Numbered from the stretch's first letter, positions 1 to 14,744 are shown. The stretch is DNA of 64,000 nt from Thermoproteota archaeon (GCA_030550585.1 JAUQPB010000003.1:68333-132332); one strand, 5' to 3'. Made by a program: numbers and translations. Notes: generated by a model from the letters alone, not told the origin.

Positions 1-237
1 TATATTGAAGATCTTTGCCAAGTGCTCCACATATATGAGGTCTCTTGGCAAGCCGTTGCTGTATATTGCTATGTAGCCCCTTGGCTTAACACCAGCTGAA
101 AGAGCTGCTATAAGCACTACTGTTGTGTCTATCCCGCCGCTTAGAGCAATGCAATCACACTTCCTCTTCTCGATTACATCCCTAATCACATTGAATAGAA
201 TTTTGCTGTATATTGTACAAGGCATTGAGAATCTCAT
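1..237 (-). CDS. Asparagine-synthetase-like PP-loop enzyme, N-terminal part only (runs off the window edge; not in ORF track)
   Basis: Hand translation gives MRFSMPCTIYSKILFNVIRDVIEKRKCDCIALSGGIDTTVVLIAALS..., with PP-loop motif LSGGIDT. The ATG overlaps the upstream stop (TGATG coupling). No N-terminal glutaminase domain. Confidence 0.7.
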   Translation of the reverse strand, partial: MRFSMPCTIYSKILFNVIRDVIEKRKCDCIALSGGIDTTVVLIAALSAGVKPRGYIAIYSNGLPRDLIYVEHLAKIFNI

Positions 238-860
238 CAAATCAGCCTCAATATCTTGTATCCGTCGTAGTTCTCTACATCAACAATCTTATAGCTCAAA
301 CTAGCTTTGTGCAGAGGACCCGACAAAACGATTGTGTGGTACTCCCCCTTTTCACCTAGAGGGTCAACACCAATACTCTTAGCATTCTCGGCAAATGCAT
401 AAACATTGTCACGATCCAATACCACGCCAAGCCACTTGCCCAAACCATTTACACACCCTATAACCATAGGCTTTAGCCCATCTTCGATCTCCTTATAAAG
501 AAGATCCTCTGGATCCATACCCCAAAGAGGCTCAACAAGAGCGGCACCAACCTCTTTAGCGATATTTTCCATATACCTGAGATGATCCTCAATATAAACA
601 TCGCCGGCTATAAGAGTATCTACACCCAAACTCCTAAGAAACCCCACAGTCTCAACAAACTCCCTGCCCTTACCAAGCTTAACAACAGCCACCGGTATCC
701 CCATCAAAAGAATTGTCTCAACAGTCTTCCCCAAATTAACTAGGTGGGGACTTGGCCTAGGAAAGTCGTATACCAGTACAAGCCCTATGTCAACTTGGAT
801 TCCAGAACGATATATTGCATAGTAAGAGTCTTTACCACCCGAAAGAAAGGCTACATGCAA
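237..860 (-). CDS. DUF71/COG2102 (diphthine-ammonia ligase-like) PP-loop ATPase
   Basis: SGGKDS, AGDVYIEDH, EPLWG and DPLGEKGEYHT motifs. Confidence 0.85.
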   Translation of the reverse strand: MHVAFLSGGKDSYYAIYRSGIQVDIGLVLVYDFPRPSPHLVNLGKTVETILLMGIPVAVVKLGKGREFVETVGFLRSLGVDTLIAGDVYIEDHLRYMENIAKEVGAALVEPLWGMDPEDLLYKEIEDGLKPMVIGCVNGLGKWLGVVLDRDNVYAFAENAKSIGVDPLGEKGEYHTIVLSGPLHKASLSYKIVDVENYDGYKILRLI

Positions 861-862
861 TG

Positions 863-1516
863 CTAGTCACCTGATTTCTGGAAATGCTTCAATTTGAACT
901 CCATGGTAACATTCTTAAGGACAGTCTTATGACATGTTGTTCTCGGGGGTAGCAATAGATTCTTTGATACAATTCTGTATATGTCATCTACTACAAGCTT
1001 TGGAGGTGCCAAACAAATATCGTGAGCTAGGCAGGTTTCAGGGTCAACGGGGGTCTTAGTTAAAGAGTTAAGTATTTTGTGAAACCCTAATTCTTTAATG
1101 GCGAGATAGAAGTCTATTCTGTCAATCCTTGCCTCAACCACTTCATAACCCATTTTAAAAATCAGCAAACCATCTCCTCTCTTAGCAGAAAACTCAGCTT
1201 CGCTAACTATTTTCTTCAAAAGTCTTTGATCCTTGTACCACCTAGAAGCTGTATACATCCAACCACCAACATCAGAAATGTCAGAGCTGTAGTCAGCTAA
1301 TACCACGGGTATGTGTCTTGCCCCAAGAATTTTCAGGGCACTGACTCTATGATGCCCATCGATAACTATATACCTTTTTTCATCAACTATAACAGGCTTT
1401 CTAAGGATCCCTGCCATCGAGAGTTCTCCCAAAATGTTTAGAAGCCTCTGTTTCTCCACATCTTCATGGGAAATAAGCATGTCTATGGGAACCATTTCGA
1501 TCCTTAGGCGACTCAA
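863..1516 (-). CDS. ParB/sulfiredoxin-fold protein, SerK/SbnI-like free amino-acid kinase
   Basis: N-terminal HE, PVIVD...VIDGHHR and C-terminal LLPPRTTCH; no HTH or dimerisation region of a partitioning ParB. Confidence 0.65.
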   Translation of the reverse strand: MSRLRIEMVPIDMLISHEDVEKQRLLNILGELSMAGILRKPVIVDEKRYIVIDGHHRVSALKILGARHIPVVLADYSSDISDVGGWMYTASRWYKDQRLLKKIVSEAEFSAKRGDGLLIFKMGYEVVEARIDRIDFYLAIKELGFHKILNSLTKTPVDPETCLAHDICLAPPKLVVDDIYRIVSKNLLLPPRTTCHKTVLKNVTMEFKLKHFQKSGD

Positions 1517-1548
1517 TACTTTTCACCATGTGCTACACAATATGTGGA

Positions 1549-2508
1549 CTACCTAGCCAGATATATAGTTATCGATAATACATTTATAATCAATATATAT
1601 GTAGCCACATTTAAAATGGCAAGCCCAAGAGCCCTCTTAATATCTCCCCCTGTTGGAAGAGGAAAACCCTCTCCTATTACATATGATCCTATCTTCTCGA
1701 GCCTCACAGATAGACAGCCAGAGGCTGCTGCCATTGGATGACCTGCATTAACACTTTCAGTAGCTCTTCTATATCTTTTGTATGTATCCCAGCTTCTTCT
1801 TATAGACCCTTTTACGATTGGGGATAGCAGTATTATGAGCAGGGCCTCTAGTCTTGCGGGAACGAAGTTTATGATTGTGTCTGCTTTTGCTGAGAACCAG
1901 CCCACATCTCTAAATTCCTCTTCTTTGTATCCGAGTGCAGAGTCGAGGGTGTTGGCTATTCTCTGTGTGAGTGCTCCTATAGGTCCGAGTATGAGGTAGT
2001 ATAGGAGTGGGGATATAAAGCCATCGACAAGACTCTCAAAAAGCGATTCTATTGCTGCTGATGCTATGTGTCCTTCGCCAAGGTTTTTGACCTCTCTTCT
2101 AACAATGTTTGAGACTTCTGTTCTTGCACATGTTAGATCTCCTTTGGCTAGACATATGTAGACGTTTTTGACGTGGTTGTATAGCAGTTTGAACGATGTG
2201 GAGACCTTGAGTATGTATGCTGAGAGAATGATCCAGGCAATTCTGCTAAACATATCCGCTATGTATAGCGCCAAAGAGTATAGAGCTACGTGGCTTGCAA
2301 CAACAGCAAACCATATAGCAATGCCCCAAAGCCTTGTTCTGGGAAGTGATCTATGTAACTTTAAAGCCATTGCATATGATGTGTGGACAGGGTGTATATA
2401 GTATAGAGCTCCCTCGTGCCTCGGATATGCAAGGTCTAGGGCCAGGGCTAGAAACAGTATGACTACAAATTCTGGGTAGCTCTGGGGAAGGAGAAAGTCT
2501 AGAGCCAT
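1549..2508 (-). CDS. cbiB: Adenosylcobinamide-phosphate synthase
   Basis: Membrane protein with HPV, AAIESLFESLVDG, NTLDSALGY and SVNAGHPMAA motifs. Start moved to MALDFLL (2508), which overlaps the cobS stop. Confidence 0.9.
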   Translation of the reverse strand: MALDFLLPQSYPEFVVILFLALALDLAYPRHEGALYYIHPVHTSYAMALKLHRSLPRTRLWGIAIWFAVVASHVALYSLALYIADMFSRIAWIILSAYILKVSTSFKLLYNHVKNVYICLAKGDLTCARTEVSNIVRREVKNLGEGHIASAAIESLFESLVDGFISPLLYYLILGPIGALTQRIANTLDSALGYKEEEFRDVGWFSAKADTIINFVPARLEALLIILLSPIVKGSIRRSWDTYKRYRRATESVNAGHPMAAASGCLSVRLEKIGSYVIGEGFPLPTGGDIKRALGLAILNVATYILIINVLSITIYLAR

Positions 2509-3287
2509 AGACTGGCACCCAGAACAAGAGCTGTTAGTATAGCTGCATAGCTCAGCTCGTTTGCAAATCCAAGGACATCTCCATTGGCATAGCCAAGGGT
2601 TTTCATACATAAAACAATTGTTGTATATGCAGAGATTGTTAGTGCTGCTAGCACTAGAATAGAGGTTGTAGCTCCTATGTAAATAGACAAGAAGGTTGCA
2701 TATGTTATCGAAAGCGATGCAAGTAAAGCGCCAACTATATCAACAGTCCTCAACCCTTTTCTAAAGAGTCTTCCCAACCCATCTGGAGGCTCCCTGCAAG
2801 CATATGCCACAACAGCCATTGTTATGGGAGACCACGTCTCGGCAACTAGAACAATTCTTGTCGCCTTCCATAGATCTGAAAGGTGAATGGCTTGTAGCGT
2901 TATTGAGTAGAGCCATAGTGCAAACAATGCAAATACTGCTATGGCGTAGGATCCTCTGAATCTATCCTTAACAACTTTGCTGGCATCAGCACCAAATCTG
3001 TGGGCTAGTACAGCCTCGGAGAAGTCTATGAATCCATCTGCGTGGATAAACCCTTGTATAATGTAGTGCATTGCCACTACGGAAAACGCTTGGATATACG
3101 GTGCATCAATGTGGAGCAAGGCTGAGAGTATTATTGGTGTAGCAGTGAAAACACCTCTGACAAAGCCTATAATGGGTAACATATAGAGGGATTCGAATGA
3201 GATCTCTGCCCCCAGATATCTTCGTGGAATTGGCAGCGAGGTTAGAAAAGCTAGTAGGGATAGAAAGTCTCTTAGCTTTTTAGCCAA
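2499..3287 (-). CDS. cobS: Adenosylcobinamide-GDP ribazoletransferase (cobalamin synthase)
   Basis: FLTSLP, GFIHADGFIDFSEA, KDRFRGSY and NGDVLG motifs; polytopic membrane protein. Confidence 0.9.
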   Translation of the reverse strand: MAKKLRDFLSLLAFLTSLPIPRRYLGAEISFESLYMLPIIGFVRGVFTATPIILSALLHIDAPYIQAFSVVAMHYIIQGFIHADGFIDFSEAVLAHRFGADASKVVKDRFRGSYAIAVFALFALWLYSITLQAIHLSDLWKATRIVLVAETWSPITMAVVAYACREPPDGLGRLFRKGLRTVDIVGALLASLSITYATFLSIYIGATTSILVLAALTISAYTTIVLCMKTLGYANGDVLGFANELSYAAILTALVLGASLWL

Positions 3288-4338
3288 CGCCCATCACAAT
3301 CTTTAGTGCTTCGACAAGCTCATTGTTTTCTCTAGGGCTTCTAATAGCTATTCTAATGTAGTTTGAGTCCAATCCCCTGAAGCTACTACAGTCCCTCAGA
3401 GCCAGGCCCATCTCCCTAAGCTTCTCAACTATTTGTCTACCACCATCTATCTTGATTAGGAGAAAATTTGTGACGCTTTCAAAAACCTTTGCACCAAGTG
3501 ATTCAAGTATTTTTCTAACCCTCTCCCTCTCACTATCTATATACTCTCTAGATCTTTGAATAAAGCTCTTCAGCTCCTGCTCATACACAGAAATGTTTTT
3601 ACCCAAGCACTCAGCCAAGCTATTCACATTCCATGGCTGTCTCAAAGCCTCTACCCTCTCCAATAAATCTATGTCATTTGTGTATAGAAAGCCTAGTCTC
3701 AGGCCTGGAAGCGAAAGCCATTTCGTTAGCGATCTCACAACAACAATGTTTTTTGGTATTTCACCCCCAACTTCAATTGGGCATCTACTGCAAAGCTCTA
3801 TATAGGCCTCATCGACAAGGCTCCTAGCACTACAGTTGGATAGGTAGCTAAATAGTCTTTCTCTATCAATGTATAGCCCAAGGGGGTTACTAGGATTTGT
3901 TATCACTATCAACCCATCTCTATCGCTACAAGGCTTCTGCAAGTCTGAGAGGTCTATGTGGAACCCATCTGATGTTCTTCTATAGAATATAGGTCTATAT
4001 TCTAGGCCGAGAGCCTTTGAAAGATCTTCGTATTCGCCGTAGGAAGGCTCTAAAACGTATACCCTCCTCGCTTTTGAAGCGATTACAGCAAGGTTTATAG
4101 CCTCGCCAGCTCCTGCAGTTGGAACTATATACTCTTCTTTGCAACGATAGAACCTTGCTAGAGACCTCTTCAAATCTCTGTATGTGTAGTCGGGGTACTT
4201 CTCCAAAACCCTTTGGCTAAAGCATGTGGCAAGAATCTCTAAAACTGTTTTTGGTGGGCCAAGCGGATTTAGATTGGAGCTGAAGTCTATTCTAGCTTCT
4301 CTGTCCCCTCCATGGATCCGCATTGGCTTTTCGCCCAC
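3280..4338 (-). CDS. cobD: L-threonine-O-3-phosphate decarboxylase (PLP)
   Basis: HGG, DFSSNLNPLGPP, NPSNPLG, DEAY and RSLTKWLSLPGLRLG motifs; operon context. Confidence 0.85.
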   Translation of the reverse strand: MGEKPMRIHGGDREARIDFSSNLNPLGPPKTVLEILATCFSQRVLEKYPDYTYRDLKRSLARFYRCKEEYIVPTAGAGEAINLAVIASKARRVYVLEPSYGEYEDLSKALGLEYRPIFYRRTSDGFHIDLSDLQKPCSDRDGLIVITNPSNPLGLYIDRERLFSYLSNCSARSLVDEAYIELCSRCPIEVGGEIPKNIVVVRSLTKWLSLPGLRLGFLYTNDIDLLERVEALRQPWNVNSLAECLGKNISVYEQELKSFIQRSREYIDSERERVRKILESLGAKVFESVTNFLLIKIDGGRQIVEKLREMGLALRDCSSFRGLDSNYIRIAIRSPRENNELVEALKIVMGVG

Positions 4339-4832
4339 AGCAAATCCTCTACAGTGTCTATATCTCTAAGCTCTTTCGATTCCTCAAAATATATGTTTTC
4401 CCAAGTGCCTTTAGATCTCCTGAAGAGGGATATTCCAGACTCTCTACACACACCATCTTTGCAGATAGCCAGCGTCACCACATCAGCTTTGGAGTTGGTT
4501 ACTTTGTCCAGAAAGCTTTTGACTGCATCAACTGTTAGGAAGGGTATGTCAGCTGGCAGAACCAGTACCGGGAACCTGGCTTTCTCTAGTATGTAAGCCA
4601 AGTCAGTGACATAGTCTATCCCTGGACACTCAACAACATCGACCTTTTTCAGAGATTTGATTAAGGGTACATCCTCGCTTCTGGCACACACAACAATCCT
4701 TCCATCGATGCCAAGGCTTAGGGCAACCTCTAACGAGACCTCGATTAGCTTTCTATTGCAAATCTCAAGAAAATATTTTTTAACACCTCCAAGCCTCGAG
4801 CCCTTGCCGCCAGCCATGATTATAACATCCAT
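4287..4832 (-). CDS. cobY: Adenosylcobinamide-phosphate guanylyltransferase
   Basis: IIMAGGKGSRLG NTP-transferase motif, PADIP and DIDT; operon context. Confidence 0.85.
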   Translation of the reverse strand: MDVIIMAGGKGSRLGGVKKYFLEICNRKLIEVSLEVALSLGIDGRIVVCARSEDVPLIKSLKKVDVVECPGIDYVTDLAYILEKARFPVLVLPADIPFLTVDAVKSFLDKVTNSKADVVTLAICKDGVCRESGISLFRRSKGTWENIYFEESKELRDIDTVEDLLWAKSQCGSMEGTEKLE

Positions 4833-4858
4833 TGGAATCCCGCAAAAGCTTGCCTATA

Positions 4859-5947
4859 TCAATGGCTATTCAGATACTTGTCATATACCCTGCTAAGAAC
4901 ACTTCCAACGACTGCAGCAACAATGTCGTCTGTCATAGGTGGAAGATTTTCCAGCTCCTCGAAAACCCCTTCCTCTTTCAGTCTTTCTATCCAGTAGTAT
5001 GCTAAAAGCCCTTTGAACCCATTTACATACTCTGCAATTGCTTTGCCTATAAGCTCGTCAGCTATGATCTTGGGCGTGTCAACTCTATACTCCTCCTCGC
5101 TAATTCCCGGAAATAGGTTTAGTGCCATCAGCATCTCAGCCAACCTAGCACCCCTCACAACTATGCAGATATTCGGATCCTTGAAAACATCCTCAAACTC
5201 TCTTCTAAGAATCTTCTCCACCTCTCCACTACTGAGCATGGGTATTGGAGCCTTGTTGTAGGCCTTTACCGCAATCTTCAATATATCATCGATGGATCTG
5301 AGCCCAACACTATTCACAAAATACTCTATGCAGTTCGTACCCACTACAAATTTTGACAAAGCCTTTAGAGTGGCTACAGCAGCTGTGAAACCAACATCAG
5401 TTGCTATACCACCAAACCTTTCGCCACCCTGAGGAGCTGCAACCATTGTTGCATCAGATGCTGTTCCTATTGAAGGGGCTGTTAAACACATTGGGCCTGC
5501 CAAACCCATTGCCAACCCCTTTACCTCAGACACCAACCTGTAGAGATCGAGTAAACCAACCTCATCAAGAGGTTTATTGACAATAACGGCAACATTTATG
5601 GTTCCAACAGCCATCGCATTGCTCGGAATGTTAGCATCTATGCACGAAGGCTTATCAACTCCAAAGGTTACATAGACCTCTGCTATAACATCTCTAAAAA
5701 TGTGTGTTGCATGCCCATACTCCCTTACATCAACTGCTGTAAGAAATATTGTAGATTTTTCATAGTCTATGCCAACAGATTTTGCAGTGTCTTTGCAGTA
5801 CCCATCTAGATCAACATATTCGAAATCTTTTGGAACCCTTCTAAACACTATGTACCTAACATCCTTGTATATCTTTGGGCATCCAGCAGTCGACAAAACC
5901 TTGTATTCCTTCTCCAAATCGATGACCAGAGTGTCGCTGTTTCTCAT
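4859..5947 (-). CDS. cbiZ: Adenosylcobinamide amidohydrolase / alpha-ribazole phosphatase fusion (CbiZ-CobZ, CbiS-like)
   Basis: N-terminal LTAVD, GTINV and GTASDA (CbiZ); C-terminal DPN, IADELIGKAIAEY and LPPMTDD (CobZ). Confidence 0.8.
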   Translation of the reverse strand: MRNSDTLVIDLEKEYKVLSTAGCPKIYKDVRYIVFRRVPKDFEYVDLDGYCKDTAKSVGIDYEKSTIFLTAVDVREYGHATHIFRDVIAEVYVTFGVDKPSCIDANIPSNAMAVGTINVAVIVNKPLDEVGLLDLYRLVSEVKGLAMGLAGPMCLTAPSIGTASDATMVAAPQGGERFGGIATDVGFTAAVATLKALSKFVVGTNCIEYFVNSVGLRSIDDILKIAVKAYNKAPIPMLSSGEVEKILRREFEDVFKDPNICIVVRGARLAEMLMALNLFPGISEEEYRVDTPKIIADELIGKAIAEYVNGFKGLLAYYWIERLKEEGVFEELENLPPMTDDIVAAVVGSVLSRVYDKYLNSH

Positions 5948-5964
5948 AAAGGCCTTAGCCGTAG

Positions 5965-7074
5965 CTATACCACCTTCACAATCCTCTCATACTCTCTATA
6001 CACAGCATGCTTAAGCTCATTAACATCAACACCTTTTAAAATGGCTAGAAGCGATGTACCTCCAGCCCCCACACCCTCTTTAACAAACCCGTCTTCATAT
6101 GCTCTAAGCCCATTGAATGGAGCGTCGCTAAAGTCTAGCTCGACATAGGCAAAGGTTATGTTAGGCACCACCATCTTTATGAACCTAGTTATCTCCGCCC
6201 CCCTGTCGCTGTATATCCATTTTGTGGTGGCTAAAACGAGTCTTTGCTCATCGAATCTAGGATCTATGGCTTTCATCAAGGCGAGTGCTGCGAGCATTTG
6301 GGTTCCACCAGCAAGAATAACAGTTGCTCTTGATTTCAGTGCTCCAAGGGCTAGACCAGCAATAGCTATGTGGACAGGGTCTCCAATAACATCATTTATT
6401 TTGAAGGGGTCTTCAGATTGTCCGAGCCTCTTCAGAGCCTCTTCAACAACAGCTTTTTTAATGTTTAGCGGATTTTCTTTTGCAGAGCTACTGATAATGT
6501 TATAGGCGTTGTATCCAAGTCCTTGTAGAATGGATAGAGCTGTTGTTGTTCCACCTGGAATGCTCTCCCCAATTAGCACGACACTGGCTATAGAGCCCAT
6601 TGCTCTGCCAACTAGAGTTGCCTCATCGAAAATTTTTCTCGATGTTCCATGGGACAACGCATCCTCTCTATCTATTCTACCCCCAACACAGCTACTTGAG
6701 AGGCTTATCAAAGGTATTCTAGGCTTTATGTAAGAGCCTGCATCAATAACCATGAAAGGTGTTTGAGAAAGCTGTAAGGCTGTTCTCGTTATTATAGCAG
6801 GTGTTGGTATGCCCGTTGGGGTTGTCGGTATGATGTCTATAGATACAGGCTTCCCAAAATAGAGATACTCCACATCGAGAGCAGGCGTAAACAGCGTTGC
6901 GATACTCATAGAGCCTGCTAGTGATATATTTGGAATTGTAGAGGTCATAGTGGATCCTATAACGTATAGCGCAATTGAAGAGCTTTGGAAAGCAGAGATG
7001 CTGTCTAGAGACCCTTGCAGAACCCTAATCCCCTTAACCATATGCGTCACACAAAAGGGTCTGGCTATAAACAT
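5965..7074 (-). CDS. cobT: Archaeal nicotinate-mononucleotide:base phosphoribosyltransferase
   Basis: TPALDVE, PTPAIIT, GESIPGGTTTAL, LAGGTQM and VKEGVGAGG motifs. Start may be MVKGI (about 7044). Confidence 0.88.
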   Translation of the reverse strand: MFIARPFCVTHMVKGIRVLQGSLDSISAFQSSSIALYVIGSTMTSTIPNISLAGSMSIATLFTPALDVEYLYFGKPVSIDIIPTTPTGIPTPAIITRTALQLSQTPFMVIDAGSYIKPRIPLISLSSSCVGGRIDREDALSHGTSRKIFDEATLVGRAMGSIASVVLIGESIPGGTTTALSILQGLGYNAYNIISSSAKENPLNIKKAVVEEALKRLGQSEDPFKINDVIGDPVHIAIAGLALGALKSRATVILAGGTQMLAALALMKAIDPRFDEQRLVLATTKWIYSDRGAEITRFIKMVVPNITFAYVELDFSDAPFNGLRAYEDGFVKEGVGAGGTSLLAILKGVDVNELKHAVYREYERIVKVV

Positions 7075-7097
7075 TTCATTAGTTGTCGCCTATAGTC

Positions 7098-7892
7098 TCA
7101 TATCTGAACCCCCTTTTCGAGGGGCTCCAATGGAATGACAATCTTCCTGCCATCAACATTTGCAATAGCTATTTTAACACCATAGACCTTCTCAAGAATA
7201 TCCTTCTTTAGAACCTCTTCAGGAGCTCCACAGGCAACCACCGACCCGCCATTCATCACTATTATCTTGTCTGCGTATAGAGAGGCCAGATAAATGTCGT
7301 GTATAGCTACAATAGCCACAATGTTATCTCTCTTTACAACAGATTTGATATAGTCTAGAACCTCTAGCCTATACCTCAAATCTAAGAAAGCTGAGGGCTC
7401 GTCTAAAAGCATAACCTTGGGCTCTTGGATAAGAGCCCTCGCAATTAAGACTCTCTGCAACTCGCCACTACTAAGCTGATCTAGTCTCCTATCGAGGAAC
7501 TGCTTTATGTTTAGCTGCCTTGAAACCTTTTCAACTATCTCAAGATCTTTTGTTGATATGGAGAAGCTTAGCATGTTTTGGTGGGGGTATCTAGCTGTTA
7601 GGAGAAACTCTAGAACTGTTGAGGGTATGGATCTAGATATGTGTGGGTCTACATAGGAGAGAAGCCTGCTTATATCTTTGGGCGACAAACTCGAAACAGC
7701 TTTTCCATCGATATAAACAACACCTTTTCTAGGCTTTACAACAGATGCTATTGTCTTTAGAAGAGTTGTTTTACCCGCTCCGTTAGGACCTATAACAAAT
7801 GCTAGTTCGCCAGAGGATATGGACAAGGTTACTCTATCCAGAGCCTTCACAGAGTTGTACCAAACTTCAACATCTTCAACAACTATCTTCAT
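7098..7892 (-). CDS. btuD: Corrinoid ABC transporter ATPase
   Basis: GPNGAGKT, LSSGE and LLDEP; FepC/BtuD type in a cob operon. Confidence 0.85.
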   Translation of the reverse strand: MKIVVEDVEVWYNSVKALDRVTLSISSGELAFVIGPNGAGKTTLLKTIASVVKPRKGVVYIDGKAVSSLSPKDISRLLSYVDPHISRSIPSTVLEFLLTARYPHQNMLSFSISTKDLEIVEKVSRQLNIKQFLDRRLDQLSSGELQRVLIARALIQEPKVMLLDEPSAFLDLRYRLEVLDYIKSVVKRDNIVAIVAIHDIYLASLYADKIIVMNGGSVVACGAPEEVLKKDILEKVYGVKIAIANVDGRKIVIPLEPLEKGVQI

Positions 7893-8932
7893 TGTCTCAT
7901 CCTCTTGGCTATTAGATAGGCGAGAAAAGGTGCTCCTATAATCGATGTTACAACGCCTAGGGGGAGCTCCCCAACAGCACCACTATACATAGAAACCAAT
8001 CTGACAACAATATCTGCAAATGTTGTTAGAATCCCCCCGACAAGAGCTGTTATTGGTATGGAGAATCTGTGGTCAGAGCCCACAAAGAACCTTGCTATGT
8101 GGGGTGCTGCAAGACCAACAAAACCTACGATGCCTATGAAGGCTATTGTAATGGCTGTTAAGAGAGATGCTATACCTGTTGATATTAGGGATATGAGTTT
8201 TGGGTTAAAGCCAAGCTGCTTCGCATAGTCATCGCCGTATAGATATGCGTTCAATGGTTTGAATAGAGCTATCGAGAATATTAGCAATGCTATGGTCGGA
8301 TAAGCTATGAACGCTATATCTCTGTACAACACAGTGTTTGTAGAGCCCATCAAGAAGTACACAATTGGTGTTCCAATAACCCTTTGAACTATGTACAGAA
8401 GAACATGTGAAACACCTGAGAATAGAGATGCCACAGCTATGCCTGCTAGAACCAGCGCCAGGCTACCCCCTCCAGCCAGTTTTGCAAGCATCATTGTCAT
8501 GAAATAGCCTAGTAGAGCCCCTATAAACGCCACCACCACAAGGTTATATCTGTAAACAGCTGTTGATGGAGATAATATAATTGTTAGCGAGATAGCTGTG
8601 AGTGCAGTTGATGAAAGGCCAAATATGTATGGGTCTGCCAAGGGGTTTCTAGTGGTGGTCTGCATAAGAATGCCTGCTATGGATAGGGCAACACCGCAGA
8701 AGAAAGAGGCTACAGTTCTAGAAACTCTTAGCATAGCCACTAAACGAACGCTGCTATCGCTAGTTGCCATGCCAAAGGGGCTTAGAAAAACTGTTTTGAA
8801 AATCTCCTTGGGATCCAGCATCGAAGGGCCTATAGATAGAGATGCGATTGTTATGGCCATGGATAGAACTATGAGTGTAAAAAGCGAAATTAAAAAATGT
8901 TTTACCTTTCTTTTGTAGAGCTCTAAAGCCAT
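7889..8932 (-). CDS. btuC: Corrinoid ABC transporter permease (FecCD family)
   Basis: RNPLADPYIFG, GIVGFVGLAAPHIAR and ELPLGVVTSIIGAP motifs. Confidence 0.88.
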   Translation of the reverse strand: MALELYKRKVKHFLISLFTLIVLSMAITIASLSIGPSMLDPKEIFKTVFLSPFGMATSDSSVRLVAMLRVSRTVASFFCGVALSIAGILMQTTTRNPLADPYIFGLSSTALTAISLTIILSPSTAVYRYNLVVVAFIGALLGYFMTMMLAKLAGGGSLALVLAGIAVASLFSGVSHVLLYIVQRVIGTPIVYFLMGSTNTVLYRDIAFIAYPTIALLIFSIALFKPLNAYLYGDDYAKQLGFNPKLISLISTGIASLLTAITIAFIGIVGFVGLAAPHIARFFVGSDHRFSIPITALVGGILTTFADIVVRLVSMYSGAVGELPLGVVTSIIGAPFLAYLIAKRMRQ

Positions 8933-8935
8933 GTT

Positions 8936-10204
8936 CTATGCAACCTCTATAGGTGGTGTTGAAACAGCTTCCCCTATTTCTAGCACCTCAAGATTTGCCA
9001 CAGCGATGTTAACTACATCAGCTCTCTGTACCTCTCCGAAAATCTCTGGGTGGATAACCTTGGAGAGTATATCCAAAGCCTCAACAATCCTTGGGCCGGG
9101 TCTGCTAACAACATCGTCTGCTTCTCCCATCAACAGATAAACCCTTCCATTCTTCCAAGCGGTTGTATTAACAAGAGGTGTTGCAACAAGCTCTTGATAG
9201 ACAGACTTTGGATCCACATCGTGTACTGTGACAATTATTATCTCAGGATCCTTAGACAAGATAAATTCGTAGCTTAGCGTAGGCCATTTGCTATAGCCAG
9301 ACGCTATATTGTTTCCACCAGCTGTTGTTATAACCCAATTGATAAATGTGTCTCCACCAGTGCTGTACAAGCCCCATGATGGTGGCCCTACAAGCCACAA
9401 AACCCTTGGCTTGGATGCATTGACCAACTTGCTGCTTATCTCATCTATCTTTCTCTGCATAGACTCTACAATCTCTTTAGCCTTATCCTCAACACCGAAG
9501 ATCTGGCCCAGCGTCATGAGATCTGCATAGATATCATACTGGTTTCTAGCTGCATCACATATGAGGAAGAATGTCTTTATCCCAGCCTCTTCAAGCTTTG
9601 CTCTAAACCCTGTCTCCTGAGGTGATACATCCCTGCACATAAAGACCACATCGGGCTTTAAACTAATTATCTTCTCCACATCCAGTGTCCACGGACCACC
9701 AACAACAGTTATCTTACCTTGTTTAACAAGGTCTAGAACCTCTGGTGGATAATTGGAGTAGGAGTCCACTCCAACAACTCTATCCCCAACTCCTATAGCA
9801 AATAGATCCTCTGTTATGCTAGGAATTGTGGATACAACTCTTTTTGGAGGTTCATTAAATGTTATTTCTCTTCCCAATGCATCAACAATTGTTCTTGGCC
9901 ATGTTACTTGTACTGTTTCAACAATTGTTGTTGGGATAGATGTTGAGACAGTTTTAATCGTAATGATTGTTGTTGGTAGTGTAGCTGAGGTGGTAAACGT
10001 TAGAGTTGTTAACGAAGCAGATGCAATTGTTGTATATAGTGTTGTGTACATCGTTGTAGTTTGTACTATAGAAGTGTAGATAGGAGATGTTGAGGTTATT
10101 GTGATGGTTGTTGTTGGCTTTGGAGCTATGATGTTTGGTGTATACCCTATTGCAATACCTATTATCAATGCTATTGCAATCAAGGCTATGTGTTTTGCCT
10201 GCAT
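8936..10204 (-). CDS. btuF: Corrinoid ABC transporter substrate-binding protein with N-terminal anchor and Thr-rich stalk
   Basis: Hydrophobic N-terminus, about 70-residue Thr-rich linker, then RVVSTIPSITE, VGVDSYSNYP and RPGPR. Confidence 0.88.
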   Translation of the reverse strand: MQAKHIALIAIALIIGIAIGYTPNIIAPKPTTTITITSTSPIYTSIVQTTTMYTTLYTTIASASLTTLTFTTSATLPTTIITIKTVSTSIPTTIVETVQVTWPRTIVDALGREITFNEPPKRVVSTIPSITEDLFAIGVGDRVVGVDSYSNYPPEVLDLVKQGKITVVGGPWTLDVEKIISLKPDVVFMCRDVSPQETGFRAKLEEAGIKTFFLICDAARNQYDIYADLMTLGQIFGVEDKAKEIVESMQRKIDEISSKLVNASKPRVLWLVGPPSWGLYSTGGDTFINWVITTAGGNNIASGYSKWPTLSYEFILSKDPEIIIVTVHDVDPKSVYQELVATPLVNTTAWKNGRVYLLMGEADDVVSRPGPRIVEALDILSKVIHPEIFGEVQRADVVNIAVANLEVLEIGEAVSTPPIEVA

Positions 10205-10344
10205 ATGGTTACCCTAGCCATATAGAGTTCATACATATAGTTAAAAAGCTTTGTTGAAAGCCTTACAAAAATTGGATAACCATTGTGTGCTTCGTTTTAG
10301 CTAAAGACAAAAGACTTATAAATTTATGTGGCTAGCCTAACCAT

Positions 10345-11145
10345 TTGGTGTTACAACTGAGAATTGTTAGCCTGTCTCCAGCTGTTACCGAAACCCTTGT
10401 CCTCTTGGGACTTGAAGATGAGATTGTTGGTATAACACCATGGTGCAGAATGTACTTGAATAATCCAGCAGAAAAAGAGATTGCAGGAACATATCTTCAC
10501 GTGCCCATCAAAAAGCTCAAGGATCTCAGCCCTGATATAGTCTTTCTTCAGTCGAGGGTGCACGACAAGATCTTCAGCGATGTCAGGTCTGCTGGGTTTA
10601 ATGCATATTTAATGCCTTTGCCAACCAATGTCAATGCCATAATATCGCATATAGTCCTTGATGTGGGTGCAATCACTGGTAGATATTATGAGTCTAGGAG
10701 GTTAGCTGAAGAGCTTCTAGACAAGGTTATGGATATATATAGGAGGTCTAGAGGTGGGAAGAGGCTAAGGATATATGTTGAGTATCTGTGGCCCGACAAA
10801 ACATATTCGACAAGCGGTGCTCTTACATACATAGACGATGGTATTTGGATAGCTGGTGGAGAGAACATCTTTCATAGTGTGCCAAAGGAATTCTTTAATC
10901 CTAGAGATGAAGATATTGTAGCAGGGGATCCAGATTTGATACTTGTGAATATAGAGCCGCCATGGGAATCCCTGACAGTGGATAAGTATAAAGAGATTAG
11001 AGAGCCTCTATCAGAGTTGAAGGCGTTCAAGTATAACAGGATTCTGTTGGTTAAAGAGACTAGAGATGTTAATCTAGCGCACTTTGGGCCTTCGTTCATA
11101 TCGACAGTAGACTGGTTGTCGAAGACATTAAGGCAATACCTATAG
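10345..11145 (+). CDS. BtuF-like helical-backbone binding protein without a signal peptide
   Basis: Starts directly at RIVSLSPAVTE; AGGENIF and HFGP motifs; no hydrophobic leader. Confidence 0.75.
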   Translation: MVLQLRIVSLSPAVTETLVLLGLEDEIVGITPWCRMYLNNPAEKEIAGTYLHVPIKKLKDLSPDIVFLQSRVHDKIFSDVRSAGFNAYLMPLPTNVNAIISHIVLDVGAITGRYYESRRLAEELLDKVMDIYRRSRGGKRLRIYVEYLWPDKTYSTSGALTYIDDGIWIAGGENIFHSVPKEFFNPRDEDIVAGDPDLILVNIEPPWESLTVDKYKEIREPLSELKAFKYNRILLVKETRDVNLAHFGPSFISTVDWLSKTLRQYL

Positions 11146-11157
11146 CAGAAACAGAAT

Positions 11158-12003
11158 GTGCATAGCAGGTGCGCGAAACTGGGTATAGACATGGATTCGA
11201 CAAGTAGAGATAAAGGCGTTAGGACAAGAGTCTATCACATAACATTCTATGACCACGACAACTCTGCGTACATCCAATTCCTCGGATGTAATCTCAGCTG
11301 TCTGGGTTGCATAAGAAAGAGGTATCTGTGGGACCACCACATCGAGAACATAGACCAGGCAATAGATGCGAAAACAGCGATCAGAACCCTAACGCTTGGC
11401 GAACTAGAAGATATTTTGAGAAAAGCTGTGGATGTGCTTGGCCTCAGAAGAGCTGTTCTTGGAGGGGGAGAGCCAACTTCAGATCCAAGCTTCTGCCAAA
11501 TCATCGAGATCCTTGGTGAACTGGGCCTCAGCATTTCAATTCTTACAAACGGCTATGAACTAGATAGGGTATTAGGCTGCATACCTCCAAAGACTTTGAT
11601 AGAGCTCAGCATCAAAAGCATAGACAGCACAAAATACAGTTTATATACAGGTGGCGGGGATCTAAATAAGGTTTTGAAAAACTTTGAAATGTTGCTCAAC
11701 ACACAACTAAATGTTGTGGTAGAGACAATACTCATTCCACAATTCAACGATGTTGACGATATCGAGAAACTGGCTATGTACATAGCTGGCAAAGACCCTG
11801 GAATACCCCTCATAATAGATGAATATATACCTGTGCCCCAGACGCCCTGGGGTAGGCCAAGCAGAGAAAGTCTGTTGGATGCATATAGAAGAGCTAGGAA
11901 GTATCTACACATAGTTATAGTCAGATCATCGTATCCAGAGTTTCACACATCCAAGAAGTTGGGAAACACCTTGATACTCTACCCTTCTAGTCAAATCCGC
12001 TAG
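11158..12003 (+). CDS. Radical SAM protein (activating-enzyme-like)
   Basis: GCNLSCLGC (CxxxCxxC), GGGEPT, TNG and ETILIP motifs. Confidence 0.85.
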   Translation: MHSRCAKLGIDMDSTSRDKGVRTRVYHITFYDHDNSAYIQFLGCNLSCLGCIRKRYLWDHHIENIDQAIDAKTAIRTLTLGELEDILRKAVDVLGLRRAVLGGGEPTSDPSFCQIIEILGELGLSISILTNGYELDRVLGCIPPKTLIELSIKSIDSTKYSLYTGGGDLNKVLKNFEMLLNTQLNVVVETILIPQFNDVDDIEKLAMYIAGKDPGIPLIIDEYIPVPQTPWGRPSRESLLDAYRRARKYLHIVIVRSSYPEFHTSKKLGNTLILYPSSQIR

Positions 12004-12059
12004 AAAAACGTTCTCCCCCAGCCCAATGTTCCAAACCTCCTTATCATAATGCTGACCAT

Positions 12060-13109
12060 CTAACTTTGGTCTATGTGTAGTCTTAGTGATGCTTCTCGGT
12101 ATATGGGGTCTAGGAACTGGTAGTTGTGGATTATACTCATATCTTCGAGGTTTTTCAGTATATTGTAGAGTATGCTTGGTGATATGGTTGTCCCCTCTTT
12201 TTCTTCGATGTATCTCTTCAAGCCGCTCCATGTTTTGACTCCCTCGGCTATTCCTCTGAGAGCATATGCGTATCTCTTCCCCCTTTCTCTCACAATGTTC
12301 TGCAGCTCCCCTAGGGCTATGTCTATGGCCAGCTTCTTTATTCTGTCTATATCCCTATTCCCCCTAGCATACTCGTTGCCAAAGAATGTCAGCCAGCCTG
12401 GTATGCCATCGAATTCCTCGACGGCCTTCTCCAGAACCTCTGCCTCCACATCTATTCCCAGCTCTCTGAAACCAGCTTTCAGAAACTCTTGCGAGGTGTC
12501 TCTGTCGAATCTCTCTAGCTTAAGATTAAAGCAGTACCTTCCATAGAGAGGTGAATCGAGTCTGTCGATTCCTAGAAACCCGTAAAGCAAACCAACTTCT
12601 GAACCGGTTAATACAAAGGTTATGTTTCTATCGTAGTCGTATGCATGGGCCAAAGCATTTAAAAACTCCTGCGAGCGGGGGCCTCTAAGCTTTTGAGCCT
12701 CATCAAAAGCTATTATGATTCTCCTCCTGTTAAGAGCATCAAAAAGCGATGAAAGCGTGAGAGAGCCCCTGCCCCTCCACTTAATCTCTACCTCAACACC
12801 CCTAATACTTATACCCGATATCGACTTGAGAACATCATACAGCTTATCAAGCTTTGACGAAAACGCCTTCGAAAGCAAGTTATACAAATCCCGCAAGCCA
12901 TAGTTGGTATGCAAATCCCTCAAATCAATTATAACACTAGGAATGCTAACCTCATTGAGAAAAACAGTCAAGAGAGAGGTCTTGCCAATCCTCCTAATAC
13001 CAGAAATAATTATAATAGGTACATCAACATTAGCATGAAGCAACTCAAGCTCGCGATCCCTCCCAAAAAGCTCACTTCTACTAGCCTTAGGCCTGGGATC
13101 AAACAGCAC
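12060..13109 (-). CDS. Archaeal ATPase (AAA-like) with C-terminal winged helix
   Basis: MLFDPRPK start, GIRRIGKTS, FDEAQ, LTGSEVG, PLYGR and DGIPGWL motifs. Confidence 0.88.
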   Translation of the reverse strand: MLFDPRPKASRSELFGRDRELELLHANVDVPIIIISGIRRIGKTSLLTVFLNEVSIPSVIIDLRDLHTNYGLRDLYNLLSKAFSSKLDKLYDVLKSISGISIRGVEVEIKWRGRGSLTLSSLFDALNRRRIIIAFDEAQKLRGPRSQEFLNALAHAYDYDRNITFVLTGSEVGLLYGFLGIDRLDSPLYGRYCFNLKLERFDRDTSQEFLKAGFRELGIDVEAEVLEKAVEEFDGIPGWLTFFGNEYARGNRDIDRIKKLAIDIALGELQNIVRERGKRYAYALRGIAEGVKTWSGLKRYIEEKEGTTISPSILYNILKNLEDMSIIHNYQFLDPIYREASLRLHIDQS

Positions 13110-13110
13110 G

Positions 13111-13144
13111 GTTCTACCCCAGAAGTTATATTCTGGGGTAGAAC
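13111..13144. promoter_or_regulatory. Perfect 14-bp inverted repeat (candidate operator) between TATA box and ATPase start
   Basis: GTTCTACCCCAGAA-gttata-TTCTGGGGTAGAAC; the minus-strand TTTATAAG TATA-like box abuts it and the GTG start is at 13109. Confidence 0.7.
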
Positions 13145-13482
13145 TTATAAACTTTAAATACCAGTCATAATAGCATCATCTAGACAAATTCGAAAACCAA
13201 AACGAGTAGAAAGCAAATCAAAAACAAAACAACAACATGCCCCAGCTTATCAATAAACATGGAATACCAACCCCTTAGTTCTAGGCACTGTACAAGAGCA
13301 TGCAGAACCTACTGTATAGCATGTGATAGCAACAGGGATACTATCAGCAGATCTCTTGTGAAAGAAAACTGTGCAGAGAGCTACAATATCAGTGTAATAC
13401 CACAGGAAAAATAGCAACACATGCAAGCTATCCTCGCTTGATTATAAAACACGACAGCCCGAAAGAGGCTTTTTGAAGCGGG

Positions 13483-13559
13483 GCGGCGCCCAATGATGGA
13501 TCAAGCTATCACTGAACGTGATGAAAGGCTTAGATGAAAGGCTTAGCAACTGACGCCGC
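13483..13559 (+). ncRNA. C/D-box guide sRNA with a 13-bp internal tandem duplication
   Basis: Terminal stem GCGGCG/CGCCGC; C ATGATGG 13493, D' CTGA 13512, C' GTGATGA 13518, D CTGA 13550. Confidence 0.7.
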
Positions 13560-13943
13560 TCAACAATTTCTGTATCTATAACTAAACCTAGATATAAATT
13601 TTTTCTACATATAAAACAATAGACAAGGACTACACAAAACTGGAAGAAGGCATGTACAAGTAGACAGCAGAAAAATATTGTATTTAGCCAGGCACATTAT
13701 TCTCTGCTATTTCTCAAGCTAACAATGCAAATCCTAACCACATCTTCTAGATCATTATAACTGGGAATAACATTAACGCTTGTATGCTTCAAAAATGGGG
13801 GCAGCAATATTGATAACCTTGTCAGAGGAGGACTAGAAGAGAATGTGTCTTTATAGATGCCTCTATCAGATGCGTCGATTTTTGTAGAGAAAGATCTTGC
13901 TACCTGTGTTTGGAGGTCTGGCTATGGGGTCTCACACCCTAGA

Positions 13944-14744
13944 TTATTTCTGTTGACTGGGATTTGCGTTAGGGGTTGCCACGTTTTTGCGTATCATTTC
14001 AAGTAGTTTTTCTTGTAGTGTGATAAACTTCTTTATTCTGATTGGTTTGATAAGTTTGTTTAGGTCTTCTAGGCTTAGCATGCGTTCTTCGCCAGAGACG
14101 TCTATAACTACTTCTACAGAGGCTTTGCCAACGCCTCCATGGTATATCAGCTGTCCCTGGTCTATTATTGTTACTGTCGATGGTTCGAGGTTGTAGAGCT
14201 GGTGTGAGGTTACAATTACTATTCTATCTCTTAACTGTGTTAGTATCTTCTCGAGGGGCTCAATCATAAGGATATCCAAGTTTGCAAAAGGCTCGTCGAG
14301 AAGAACTATCTTAGCATCTTTGCCTAGTGCTATAGCCAACTGCACCCTCTTTCTATAGCCTGCTGATAGTTCAAGATACTTTTTGTGGAGATAGCCCTCA
14401 AGCCCTAGCTCAAGGCTCATCTCCCTCGCTTTCTCATCACCAAGAAAATCTGCGAGTATATCCCCAACCCTCATATTCGGCAAAACAACATCTTCACCAA
14501 CATAGCCCATAAGCTTAACAATAGAGACTGTTGAAATCTTCTCACCTTTTTCTGTAACCGTGTAGATCTCCCCTCGATCAGGCCTTATGAACCCAGCTAT
14601 AGATTTGAGCAACGTACTTTTGCCACTACCGTTAGGCCCTAGAATCAGGTTGACACCCTTTCTGAATACAAGTCTCGGAATTTTCAAGGTGAAGTACTTG
14701 TACCTCTTCTCCAGACCTTCGACAACCACCTGCTCTATCTCCAT
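13944..14744 (-). CDS. ABC transporter ATPase (exporter type)
   Basis: GPNGSGKS, LSAGY, LLDEPF and TSH motifs. Confidence 0.9.
   Translation of the reverse strand: MEIEQVVVEGLEKRYKYFTLKIPRLVFRKGVNLILGPNGSGKSTLLKSIAGFIRPDRGEIYTVTEKGEKISTVSIVKLMGYVGEDVVLPNMRVGDILADFLGDEKAREMSLELGLEGYLHKKYLELSAGYRKRVQLAIALGKDAKIVLLDEPFANLDILMIEPLEKILTQLRDRIVIVTSHQLYNLEPSTVTIIDQGQLIYHGGVGKASVEVVIDVSGEERMLSLEDLNKLIKPIRIKKFITLQEKLLEMIRKNVATPNANPSQQK

Follow-up and report, generated by a model that had tools for sequence, protein, structure and literature searches.

This locus raises the question of which enzyme supplies the phosphorylated amino acid from which the linker of archaeal cobamides is made. Of the steps in B12 nucleotide-loop assembly, the one catalysed by L-threonine kinase is conserved least, and we know of no enzyme for the phospho-amino-acid step of the linker in most archaea. 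A 2020 review gives PduX and BluE as the only L-threonine kinases of B12 synthesis (PMC7242693), a pduX annotation is missing from most of the experimentally verified cobamide-producing bacteria (PMC6461909), and a 2021 study counts EC 2.7.1.177 among the pathway gaps of haloarchaea (PMC8305020). The window analysed here, that is, the whole stretch of 64,000 nucleotides, holds at 863..1516 a candidate that makes this old pathway gap directly testable. Its predicted product may be the L-threonine kinase that feeds CobD, a reading to which we assign a probability of about one half.

The interval contains a single ORF, which lies on the minus strand, begins with a TTG start and encodes 217 aa. 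It takes the tenth place in a minus-strand operon of 12 genes with the order btuF-btuC-btuD-cobT-cbiS-cobY-cobD-cobS-cbiB-candidate kinase-PP-loop ATPase-AsnB-like, annotated by Pfam and NCBIfam scans together with ORF reading. From the first gene of the operon to the last, the features are as follows.

8936..10204, minus strand: putative BtuF-like substrate-binding protein, a 422-aa ORF assigned from sequence and position only; probably the first gene of the operon.
7889..8932, minus strand: btuC-like permease of the FecCD family (Pfam and NCBIfam scans).
7098..7892, minus strand: btuD-like ABC ATPase (Pfam and NCBIfam scans).
5965..7074, minus strand: cobT, archaeal type (TIGR00303, 324.9 bits, above the 240-bit cut-off).
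4859..5947, minus strand: cbiS-like fusion of a CbiZ amidohydrolase and a CobZ alpha-ribazole phosphatase (PF01955, 1.6e-36; NF038002, 210 bits, under the 250-bit cut-off).
4287..4832, minus strand: cobY-like adenosylcobinamide-phosphate guanylyltransferase (PF12804, 1.9e-18; NF045495, 55 bits, below cut-off).
3280..4338, minus strand: cobD, 352 aa, PLP-dependent threonine-phosphate decarboxylase type (TIGR01140, 242 bits, below the 290.6-bit cut-off; hisC score in the NCBIfam scan, 190 bits).
2499..3287, minus strand: cobS, cobamide synthase (PF02654, 5.8e-29).
1549..2610, minus strand: cbiB, adenosylcobinamide-phosphate synthase (PF03186, 1.3e-75; NF002281, 336.7 bits, above the 273-bit cut-off); its true start is probably downstream of 2610, since the family match begins near residue 49.
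863..1516, minus strand: type-1 cob-linked SerK/SbnI-like ParB-fold candidate kinase, 217 aa, made up of a ParB-N domain and a C-terminal domain of SerK type; its key residues are E18 (E30 in Tk-SerK), D53-G-H-H-R57, P191, T194 and H196.
237..860, minus strand: PP-loop ATP pyrophosphatase of the TTX_0299 family (PF01902; NF052347, 277 bits, above the 250-bit cut-off), a Dph6 paralogue that accompanies cob clusters.
1..240, minus strand: 5' part of a stand-alone asparagine-synthetase-domain (AsnB-like) protein (PF00733, 5.4e-15), which in full has 257 aa (genome C3:67799-68572); the last gene of the operon, extending past the window edge.

The order cobD, cobS, cbiB ahead of the candidate gene and on its strand is the one described in the first-pass annotation. 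The candidate starts 32 nt after the cbiB stop and is followed after 2 nt by the PP-loop gene, which in turn overlaps the AsnB-like gene by 4 nt; it is translationally coupled to these two genes, both of ATP-pyrophosphatase type. The 838-aa ORF after the AsnB-like gene is unrelated. An Rfam scan of window positions 1-14000 returned no family, the cobalamin riboswitch included, and a promoter and terminator scan, with bacterial-type models ill-suited to an archaeon, gave sites not above those of shuffled sequences. The genome to which the window belongs comprises 1.76 Mb in 7 contigs and is 99.9 % complete. The closest named relatives are Ignisphaera MAGs, and near-identical DNA is contained in hot-spring metagenomes.

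The translation of 863..1516 carries the motifs S-H17-E18-D, D53-G-H-H-R57 and P190-P-R-T-T-C-H196, so all three patterns previously read from the DNA (HE, DGHHR and PPxTTxH) are present. In the NCBIfam scan the protein matches the SerK model (E 1.2e-14) and the SbnI model (E 5.8e-11), both matches being confined to the N-terminal ~80 residues (residues 8-87 for the SerK model). The scores fall well short of the equivalog cut-offs, with 54.1 bits against a cut-off of 380 for SerK (NF053625) and 42.2 bits against a cut-off of 350 for SbnI (NF033589), and the genetic context is cob, not the sbn siderophore operon. A sequence search of the PDB recovered SerK, SbnI and 1vk1, a protein of P. furiosus, at 1e-7 to 1e-9 (E 6.8e-9 for SerK 5x0b). 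The sole Pfam match is a sub-threshold hit of 17 bits to ParBc_2, the ParB-like nuclease family; neither the SerK_C family nor an HTH or any other DNA-binding family was detected at E <= 0.01, and no parA-like gene was found among the operon genes or the flanking ORFs that were annotated or read. The first-pass annotation, which had noted the lack of both a ParB HTH and a parA gene, is borne out within this scope.

A single-sequence AlphaFold model of the protein was unusable (pLDDT 36) and was replaced by an AlphaFold2 model built from an alignment of 77 sequences, which reached a pLDDT of 96.3 and a pTM of 0.90. Compared with the PDB by Foldseek, this model aligns over ~228 columns with SerK, SbnI and 1vk1 at E 1e-10 to 1e-12 and TMq 0.67-0.76. 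Full-length matches are limited to 1vk1, five SerK entries (5x0b/e/g/j/k) and three SbnI entries (5uje, 5ujd and 6nr6), with identities of 18-20 %, while classical ParB, Noc and sulfiredoxin align to the N-domain only, over ~80 columns. In both the PDB sequence search and Foldseek, E18 is aligned with the residue mutated in the SerK entries of the PDB labelled 'E30A' and 'E30Q'. Across 77 homologues E18, D53, G54, H56, R57 and P191 are invariant, and H17, P41, T194 and H196 are conserved in at least 90 %. The protein thus combines the two-domain architecture of the SerK/SbnI-like superfamily, ParB-N plus a SerK-type C-domain, with the catalytic Glu and the DGxHR nucleotide loop, and has none of the HTH, C-terminal dimerisation domain and parA partner of a partition ParB. 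Given the full-length fold matches and the conserved catalytic residues, we take it to be a SerK/SbnI-type two-domain putative kinase with an intact catalytic core, as the first-pass annotation had suggested from motifs, and not a DNA-partition ParB. With a score far under the 380-bit cut-off, it is not a SerK orthologue either. The strict SerK C-terminal motif is PKTTRH, with an Arg before the His, and that of the window's protein is PPRTTCH.

In an exhaustive profile search with the protein, 810 cluster representatives came up at E <= 1e-10, 20 of them at E <= 1e-30. A scan of 79 selected full-length representatives covered 77, the two left out being near-copies of the query, and none of the 77 reached the SerK cut-off (best, 146 bits). 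Two mutually agreeing trees were built, one with FastTree from 107 rows and another with IQ-TREE under a mixture model from a chosen subset of 70 rows. The protein falls in a clade, here called type 1, formed by 14 cob-linked proteins and 8 unlabelled representatives with an SH-aLRT of 96 in IQ-TREE, in agreement with FastTree; true SerK (SH-aLRT 100) and a second SerK-like type described below, type 2 (SH-aLRT 98), form separate sets. A tree against SerK and SbnI had been proposed as a check, and its outcome is a well-supported clade apart from true SerK. When the clade profile was run on 401 genomes of the phylum, members scored 266-307 bits and the next best protein 121 bits, and every member belonged to the order of the window. 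Fixed differences between the clade and five true SerK proteins are A74 (I/V in SerK), Y88 (P), R192 (K), Y/C/L195 (R) and T198 (L), all positioned close to the motifs that both share, and K112, G114, D132, D135, Y137, K154 and P172 are invariant and the clade's own. The alanine at position 74, an Ile or Val in SerK, may be taken as a lead towards a roomier pocket, and as a lead only.

The linkage to cobamide genes is a property of the clade. Within the order, sampled by 251 genomes, some ParB-N/SerK-like match is present in 201, and 14 besides the window's own genome hold a full-length match at E <= 1e-30. For all 14, and for the six weaker full-length matches that rank next, neighbourhoods of up to 20 kb were queried with the proteins of the window operon. 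Cob genes lie near the gene in 13 of the 14 neighbourhoods, and these 13 are the other type-1 clade members in the sampled genomes, so that the suggestion of a conserved neighbourhood with cob genes holds for 13 of 13 in or beside cob clusters. In ten of them the gene directly follows an intact cbiB. Of the rest, one has the gene beside cbiB fragments (G011), another has 3 kb between gene and cbiB (G004), and in G063 the gene sits between btuD and the PP-loop gene, having moved with btuCD, with cobT..cbiB convergent. The 13 genomes are spread over four families of the order, with several arrangements of the genes; they are close kin, so the cob-linked counts overstate their independence. For the fourteenth protein (G007, 36 % identity) and the six weaker homologues, the fetched stretches hold no cob gene, and the trees place these proteins outside the clade. 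Strong matches in scans of genome contigs and metagenomes are also cob-linked, several of them being apparently records of genomes already counted, which adds little independent support. Among related cob clusters, no SerK-like gene was found within 10 kb of those of G058 and G077, nor in the fetched cob-cluster stretches, several of them short contigs, of seven genomes of one family (f6), and linkage of SerK-like genes to cob genes is thus not universal among them.

Within the genus of the window, a second type of SerK-like protein appears in the place of the first. Type 2 has ~180 aa and the motifs PHE..DGHHR..PPKT[ST][RK]H, lacks the middle of the C-domain and is only distantly related to type 1. 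Among 16 genus genomes plus the window's own, type 1 occurs in 8, an intact type 2 alone in another 8, and neither in G086, a genome 93 % complete in which no SerK-like gene, no CobD-like match and no CbiB match was found. Each of the 16 genus genomes with a cob cluster thus holds exactly one intact type. Two type-1 genomes also carry an incomplete copy of the other, a type 2 broken in two pieces in G048 and a partial one of 142 aa in G004. Type 2 follows cbiB directly in G164, G158 and G038; in G027 it lies beside a btuF-like gene and cobT, and an opposite-strand membrane ORF fills the slot between cbiB and the PP-loop gene. Type 2 and the cob cluster are on different contigs in G058, G077 and G128, and type 2 is at a contig edge in G100. 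Either type can accompany either sequence variant of the cluster, the divergent variant being found with type 1 in G004 and G175 and the window-like variant with type 2 in G027. CobD and HisC paralogues share 33-40 % identity and overlap in score, so the presence of CobD was read from clusters and not from E-values alone.

This pattern fits two interchangeable providers of one cob-related activity: the types exclude each other and their presence tracks the cluster, which supports a role tied to it. The genomes of the genus are closely related, however, and the tally does not consist of independent events. FastTree places type 2 on the SerK side of the tree, and type 2 keeps SerK-like residues, namely I/V at position 74, K192 and R/K195. 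Forcing both types into one clade costs 28 log-likelihood units with a p-AU of 0.044, a borderline value for a group that was named after seeing the tree, which leaves independent recruitment of types 1 and 2 likely.

The genome also points to a need for the activity. No cobyric acid synthase (CobQ/CbiP) reaches the cut-off anywhere in it, the best score being 41 bits, and B12-binding-domain proteins are encoded. In such a salvage-only genome the linker has to be rebuilt on salvaged corrinoids, and the cell seems to take up corrinoids, cleave them with CbiZ and assemble the loop anew. Assembly requires aminopropanol phosphate, and hence a phospho-amino acid for CobD, for which no source besides the candidate kinase is evident. 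The absence of a visible PduX or BluE, noted before for the window, extends to the near-complete genome: no PduX- or BluE-like kinase was found in its 1.76 Mb, and so neither turned up elsewhere, the case that would have spoken against the earlier proposal. The name PduX does not occur among the NCBIfam matches at E <= 1e-5, a database that may hold no PduX model. Six GHMP-family genes are present, with best matches to galactokinase, shikimate kinase, homoserine kinase, mevalonate kinase, pantoate kinase and beta-RFAP synthase (those to galactokinase and pantoate kinase below cut-off), and the APH-fold matches are Bud32 and two Rio kinases. The homoserine kinase could moonlight as a threonine kinase. 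With cobD and cbiB beside the gene and no other threonine kinase found in the genome, the genetic context is the one expected of an L-threonine kinase.

The window's genome holds no second SerK-like gene and no gene above the 380-bit cut-off of true SerK. Across the order, SerK-like genes at E <= 1e-40 occur in 36 of the 251 genomes, 8 of them above the cut-off, in two families only and in 0 of the 25 genomes of the window's own family. In one genome, G175, a SerK-like gene of 311 bits is present in addition to the cob-linked gene, and two such genes in one genome are best read as paralogues with different jobs. The CobD of the window aligns with S. enterica CobD 1lc5 at 1.2e-40 (residues 5-349 on 15-357 of 364) and has neither an N-terminal extension nor an extra domain. 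It scores 143 bits against the S. enterica Thr-P decarboxylase and 84 bits against 6oux, a difference that lends weak support to threonine.

In the preferred reading, a soluble two-domain kinase of the SerK/SbnI (ParB/Srx-fold) type would have been recruited to an operon for cobamide salvage and nucleotide-loop assembly. CbiZ, as part of CbiS, would trim imported corrinoids back to adenosylcobyric acid. The protein of 863..1516 would convert free L-threonine into L-threonine-O-3-phosphate, E18 serving as the catalytic base and the DGHHR loop binding the phosphates of the nucleotide. CobD, encoded two genes upstream, would decarboxylate the product to (R)-1-amino-2-propanol phosphate, and CbiB, encoded directly upstream, would attach this linker to cobyric acid. 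We infer the amino-acid substrate from the setting in the operon and from the nearest enzymes, whose substrate is serine; the phosphate donor and the transfer of the product to CobD are likewise predictions. In favour of threonine, these nearest characterised enzymes act on a free hydroxy-amino acid that is smaller by a single methyl group (Makino 2016, PMC5120207); against it, Tk-SerK rejects Thr and homoserine (PMC5120207). The earlier proposal that the protein supplies the phospho-amino acid for the linker is supported in part, each computational check suggested with it having come out in its favour.

Instead of threonine, the kinase of the cob operon might phosphorylate free L-serine, CobD would then turn L-Ser-P into ethanolamine phosphate, and the corrinoid would be rebuilt as a norcobamide. 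The characterised relatives are all serine kinases, with Tk-SerK refusing threonine (PMC5120207), and the genome is without a true SerK; its three SerA-like 2-hydroxyacid dehydrogenases are all below the SerA cut-off, so that another source of Ser-P is not established. The interchangeability of type 2, its PPKT[ST][RK]H motif, its I/V at the position of A74 and its grouping on the SerK side would fit a serine kinase equally well. The type-1 clade, however, swaps residues that are invariant in SerK (R195 to Y/C/L, K192 to R, L198 to T, I74 to A and P88 to Y), the protein reaches 54 of the 380 bits required for SerK, and G175 has a SerK-like gene besides the cob-linked one. The Thr-P enzyme of S. 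enterica is a nearer match to the window's CobD than 6oux, which we take to be a norcobamide enzyme, and norcobamides are to our knowledge known from a few bacteria only, all of which makes a serine kinase unlikely. The hydroxyl to be phosphorylated could also be another one of the salvage pathway: that of (R)-1-amino-2-propanol released by CbiZ, to give AP-P, that of cobinamide, as in the kinase half of CobU, or that of alpha-ribazole, in a CblS-like manner. The operon suits these roles as well as it does a threonine kinase, and the secondary alcohol of aminopropanol resembles the threonine side chain. The kinase half of bacterial CobU has no counterpart in archaeal CobY, and we know of no archaea with a CobU kinase. 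Yet CobD, which would be redundant with a simple re-phosphorylation of AP, is kept in every cluster whose contig reaches that far, and this counts against an aminopropanol kinase; a cobinamide kinase would be unneeded, since CbiZ is encoded and the archaeal route bypasses that step. As a free amino acid is what the closest enzymes bind, and the protein retains both domains of the SerK type, we hold a kinase for these other hydroxyls to be distinctly improbable.

The tight coupling of the gene to the PP-loop and AsnB-like genes, with its 2-nt gap and the 4-nt overlap after it, and the presence of all three genes alongside cob clusters point to one more alternative. The coupling to these two ATP-pyrophosphatase-type genes could mean a different chemistry, in which the three proteins would form a module acting on the corrinoid itself, for instance by phosphorylating a side-chain carboxylate as sulfiredoxin, of the same fold, does with a sulfinate. 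The protein might otherwise be an operon regulator, a role that SbnI also has according to its NCBIfam description. A fixed module is hard to reconcile with G004 and G175, where the PP-loop and AsnB-like genes come after cobT and apart from the kinase, with G017 and G115, where cbiB is followed by the AsnB-like gene without any kinase, and with G244, where the PP-loop gene was not found. No DNA-binding domain was detected by Pfam at E <= 0.01, which argues against a regulator, and the catalytic residues invariant in 77 homologues argue against both proposals, each of which seems very unlikely. A wider conjecture is that two distantly related SerK-like branches would have been recruited to the same slot as the archaeal linker kinase, and, in its bolder version, that these would be serine kinases leading to norcobamides. 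We consider it rather doubtful; if the bolder version is true, norcobamides would be new to archaea, and their synthesis would for the first time have a kinase of its own.

The threonine kinase reading seems to be new to the literature searched. Among the best 15 of 214 and the best 25 of 987 full-text matches, in searches whose scope left subscription journals and supplements outside, there was no proposal of a threonine kinase of the ParB/SerK fold, and a term search found neither cobalamin nor threonine in a 2025 survey of the ParB-CTPase fold (PMC12704722). If correct, this reading would make the ParB/Srx-fold enzyme a further independent invention of L-threonine kinase activity and add to the substrates known for SerK/SbnI kinases. 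A family labelled "ParB-like" or "hypothetical", present in 201/251 sampled genomes of the order, would also become easier to annotate.

Several known systems share part of these features. With ParB, Noc and sulfiredoxin the protein has in common the N-terminal ParB/Srx nucleotide-binding domain (~80 aligned columns), but it has no HTH, no dimerisation domain and no nearby parA, and carries an additional SerK-type C-terminal domain. PduX, of the GHMP fold, and BluE would be its counterparts in reaction and pathway position, the supply of L-Thr-P to CobD; their folds, however, are unrelated to that of the 863..1516 protein, and neither is detectable in the window's genome. The CobD of M. mazei carries a kinase domain, whereas the CobD of the window has no extra domain.

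The likeness is greatest with the two kinases of the same fold. SerK, from Thermococcales and Desulfurococcales, phosphorylates free L-serine with ADP or ATP, and the protein shares with it the two-domain fold (TMq 0.67-0.74 over ~228 columns), a similar size, the lack of an HTH, the catalytic Glu (E30, here E18), the DGHHR loop, P191, T194 and H196. It differs from SerK in its identity of 18-20 %, its 54 of 380 bits, its separate clade, a C-terminal motif PPRTT[Y/C/L]H throughout type 1 in place of PKTTRH, and the coexistence of the cob-linked gene with a SerK-like gene in G175. Its context is a cob operon, whereas serK stands alone or with serA and aminotransferase genes (PMC5120207). SbnI, which phosphorylates free serine and regulates staphyloferrin B synthesis (NF033589), is bacterial and belongs to another pathway, and the 863..1516 protein reaches 42 of its 350 bits. 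The fold is nonetheless the same (TMq 0.72-0.76), and SbnI offers the closest parallel in organisation, that of a pathway-dedicated kinase encoded within the operon that consumes its product.

Downstream of the kinase gene, which encodes the 217-aa SerK/SbnI-like candidate threonine kinase (type 1), the cob salvage operon ends with two genes:

Window 237-860, minus strand: PP-loop ATP pyrophosphatase of the TTX_0299 family, a paralogue of Dph6
Window 1-240, continuing to genome position C3:67799, minus strand: stand-alone asparagine-synthetase domain without a glutaminase domain (AsnB-like)

Both are ATP pyrophosphatases of the ammonia-ligase type that accompany archaeal cob salvage clusters, as seen in the compared genome stretches L055-L067, L083, L084, L086, L090, and L094, and their association with these clusters persists where the kinase is absent or located elsewhere. 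Among the sampled genomes of the order, the two genes are placed after cobT in G004 and G175, and cbiB is followed by the AsnB-like gene in G017 and G115. A second PF01902 gene in the window's genome, at C4:576398, is probably the real Dph6, and no CbiP was found in this genome. One idea is that the PP-loop/AsnB-like pair would re-amidate corrinoid side chains deamidated by heat, or else activate the f-carboxylate for CbiB.

The cob region of another relative, G011, is a partial duplication (L094, G011:C1:10500-30499; L061, G011:C1:23000-42999). The last gene of its main cob cluster is AsnB-like, preceded by a PP-loop gene whose match is broken into three parts; about 9 kb away two short cbiB fragments precede intact kinase, PP-loop, and AsnB-like genes. 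In the operon under study, cbiB read as its longest ORF shares 112 nt with the end of cobS (window 2499-2610), and the match to the cbiB family begins only near residue 49 of this ORF; the true start is probably the internal methionine at residue 36, which would leave a short overlap. Two ORFs diverge from the operon start, with tentative assignments:

Window 10345-11145, plus strand: 266-aa ORF, read as a second BtuF-like binding protein
Window 11158-12003, plus strand: 281-aa ORF with a Cys-rich N-terminus, possibly a radical-SAM-like protein

The 266-aa ORF is similar to one adjoining, in G027, the gene for a second, distantly related SerK-like protein of the same genus (type 2), which was located as follows:

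L084:10937-11488, plus strand: type-2 SerK-like protein
L085:7065-7607, plus strand: type-2 SerK-like protein
L083:14630-15172, minus strand: type-2 SerK-like protein

Type 2 (~180 aa) lacks most of the C-domain and retains the PHE, DGHHR, and PPKT[ST][RK]H motifs. Outside the archaea, a Photorhabdus kayaii contig (L012) gave a weak ParB-N match (33% over 57 residues); a gene of the aminotransferase fold resembling CobD/HisC (27% identity) lies 2.5 kb away, a proximity that may reflect chance or a natural-product cluster.

In sister species, type 2 sits in the cob cluster, and within the genus the two types are mutually exclusive. In G027, the site that type 1 occupies in other genomes, flanked by cbiB and the PP-loop gene, holds a 175-aa hydrophobic ORF on the opposite strand (L083:7435-7962, plus strand). 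The type-1 carrier G048 has a type-2 homologue (G048:C7:81439-81910) whose two fragments lie in different frames and which contains an in-frame TAG; it looks like a redundant copy in decay.
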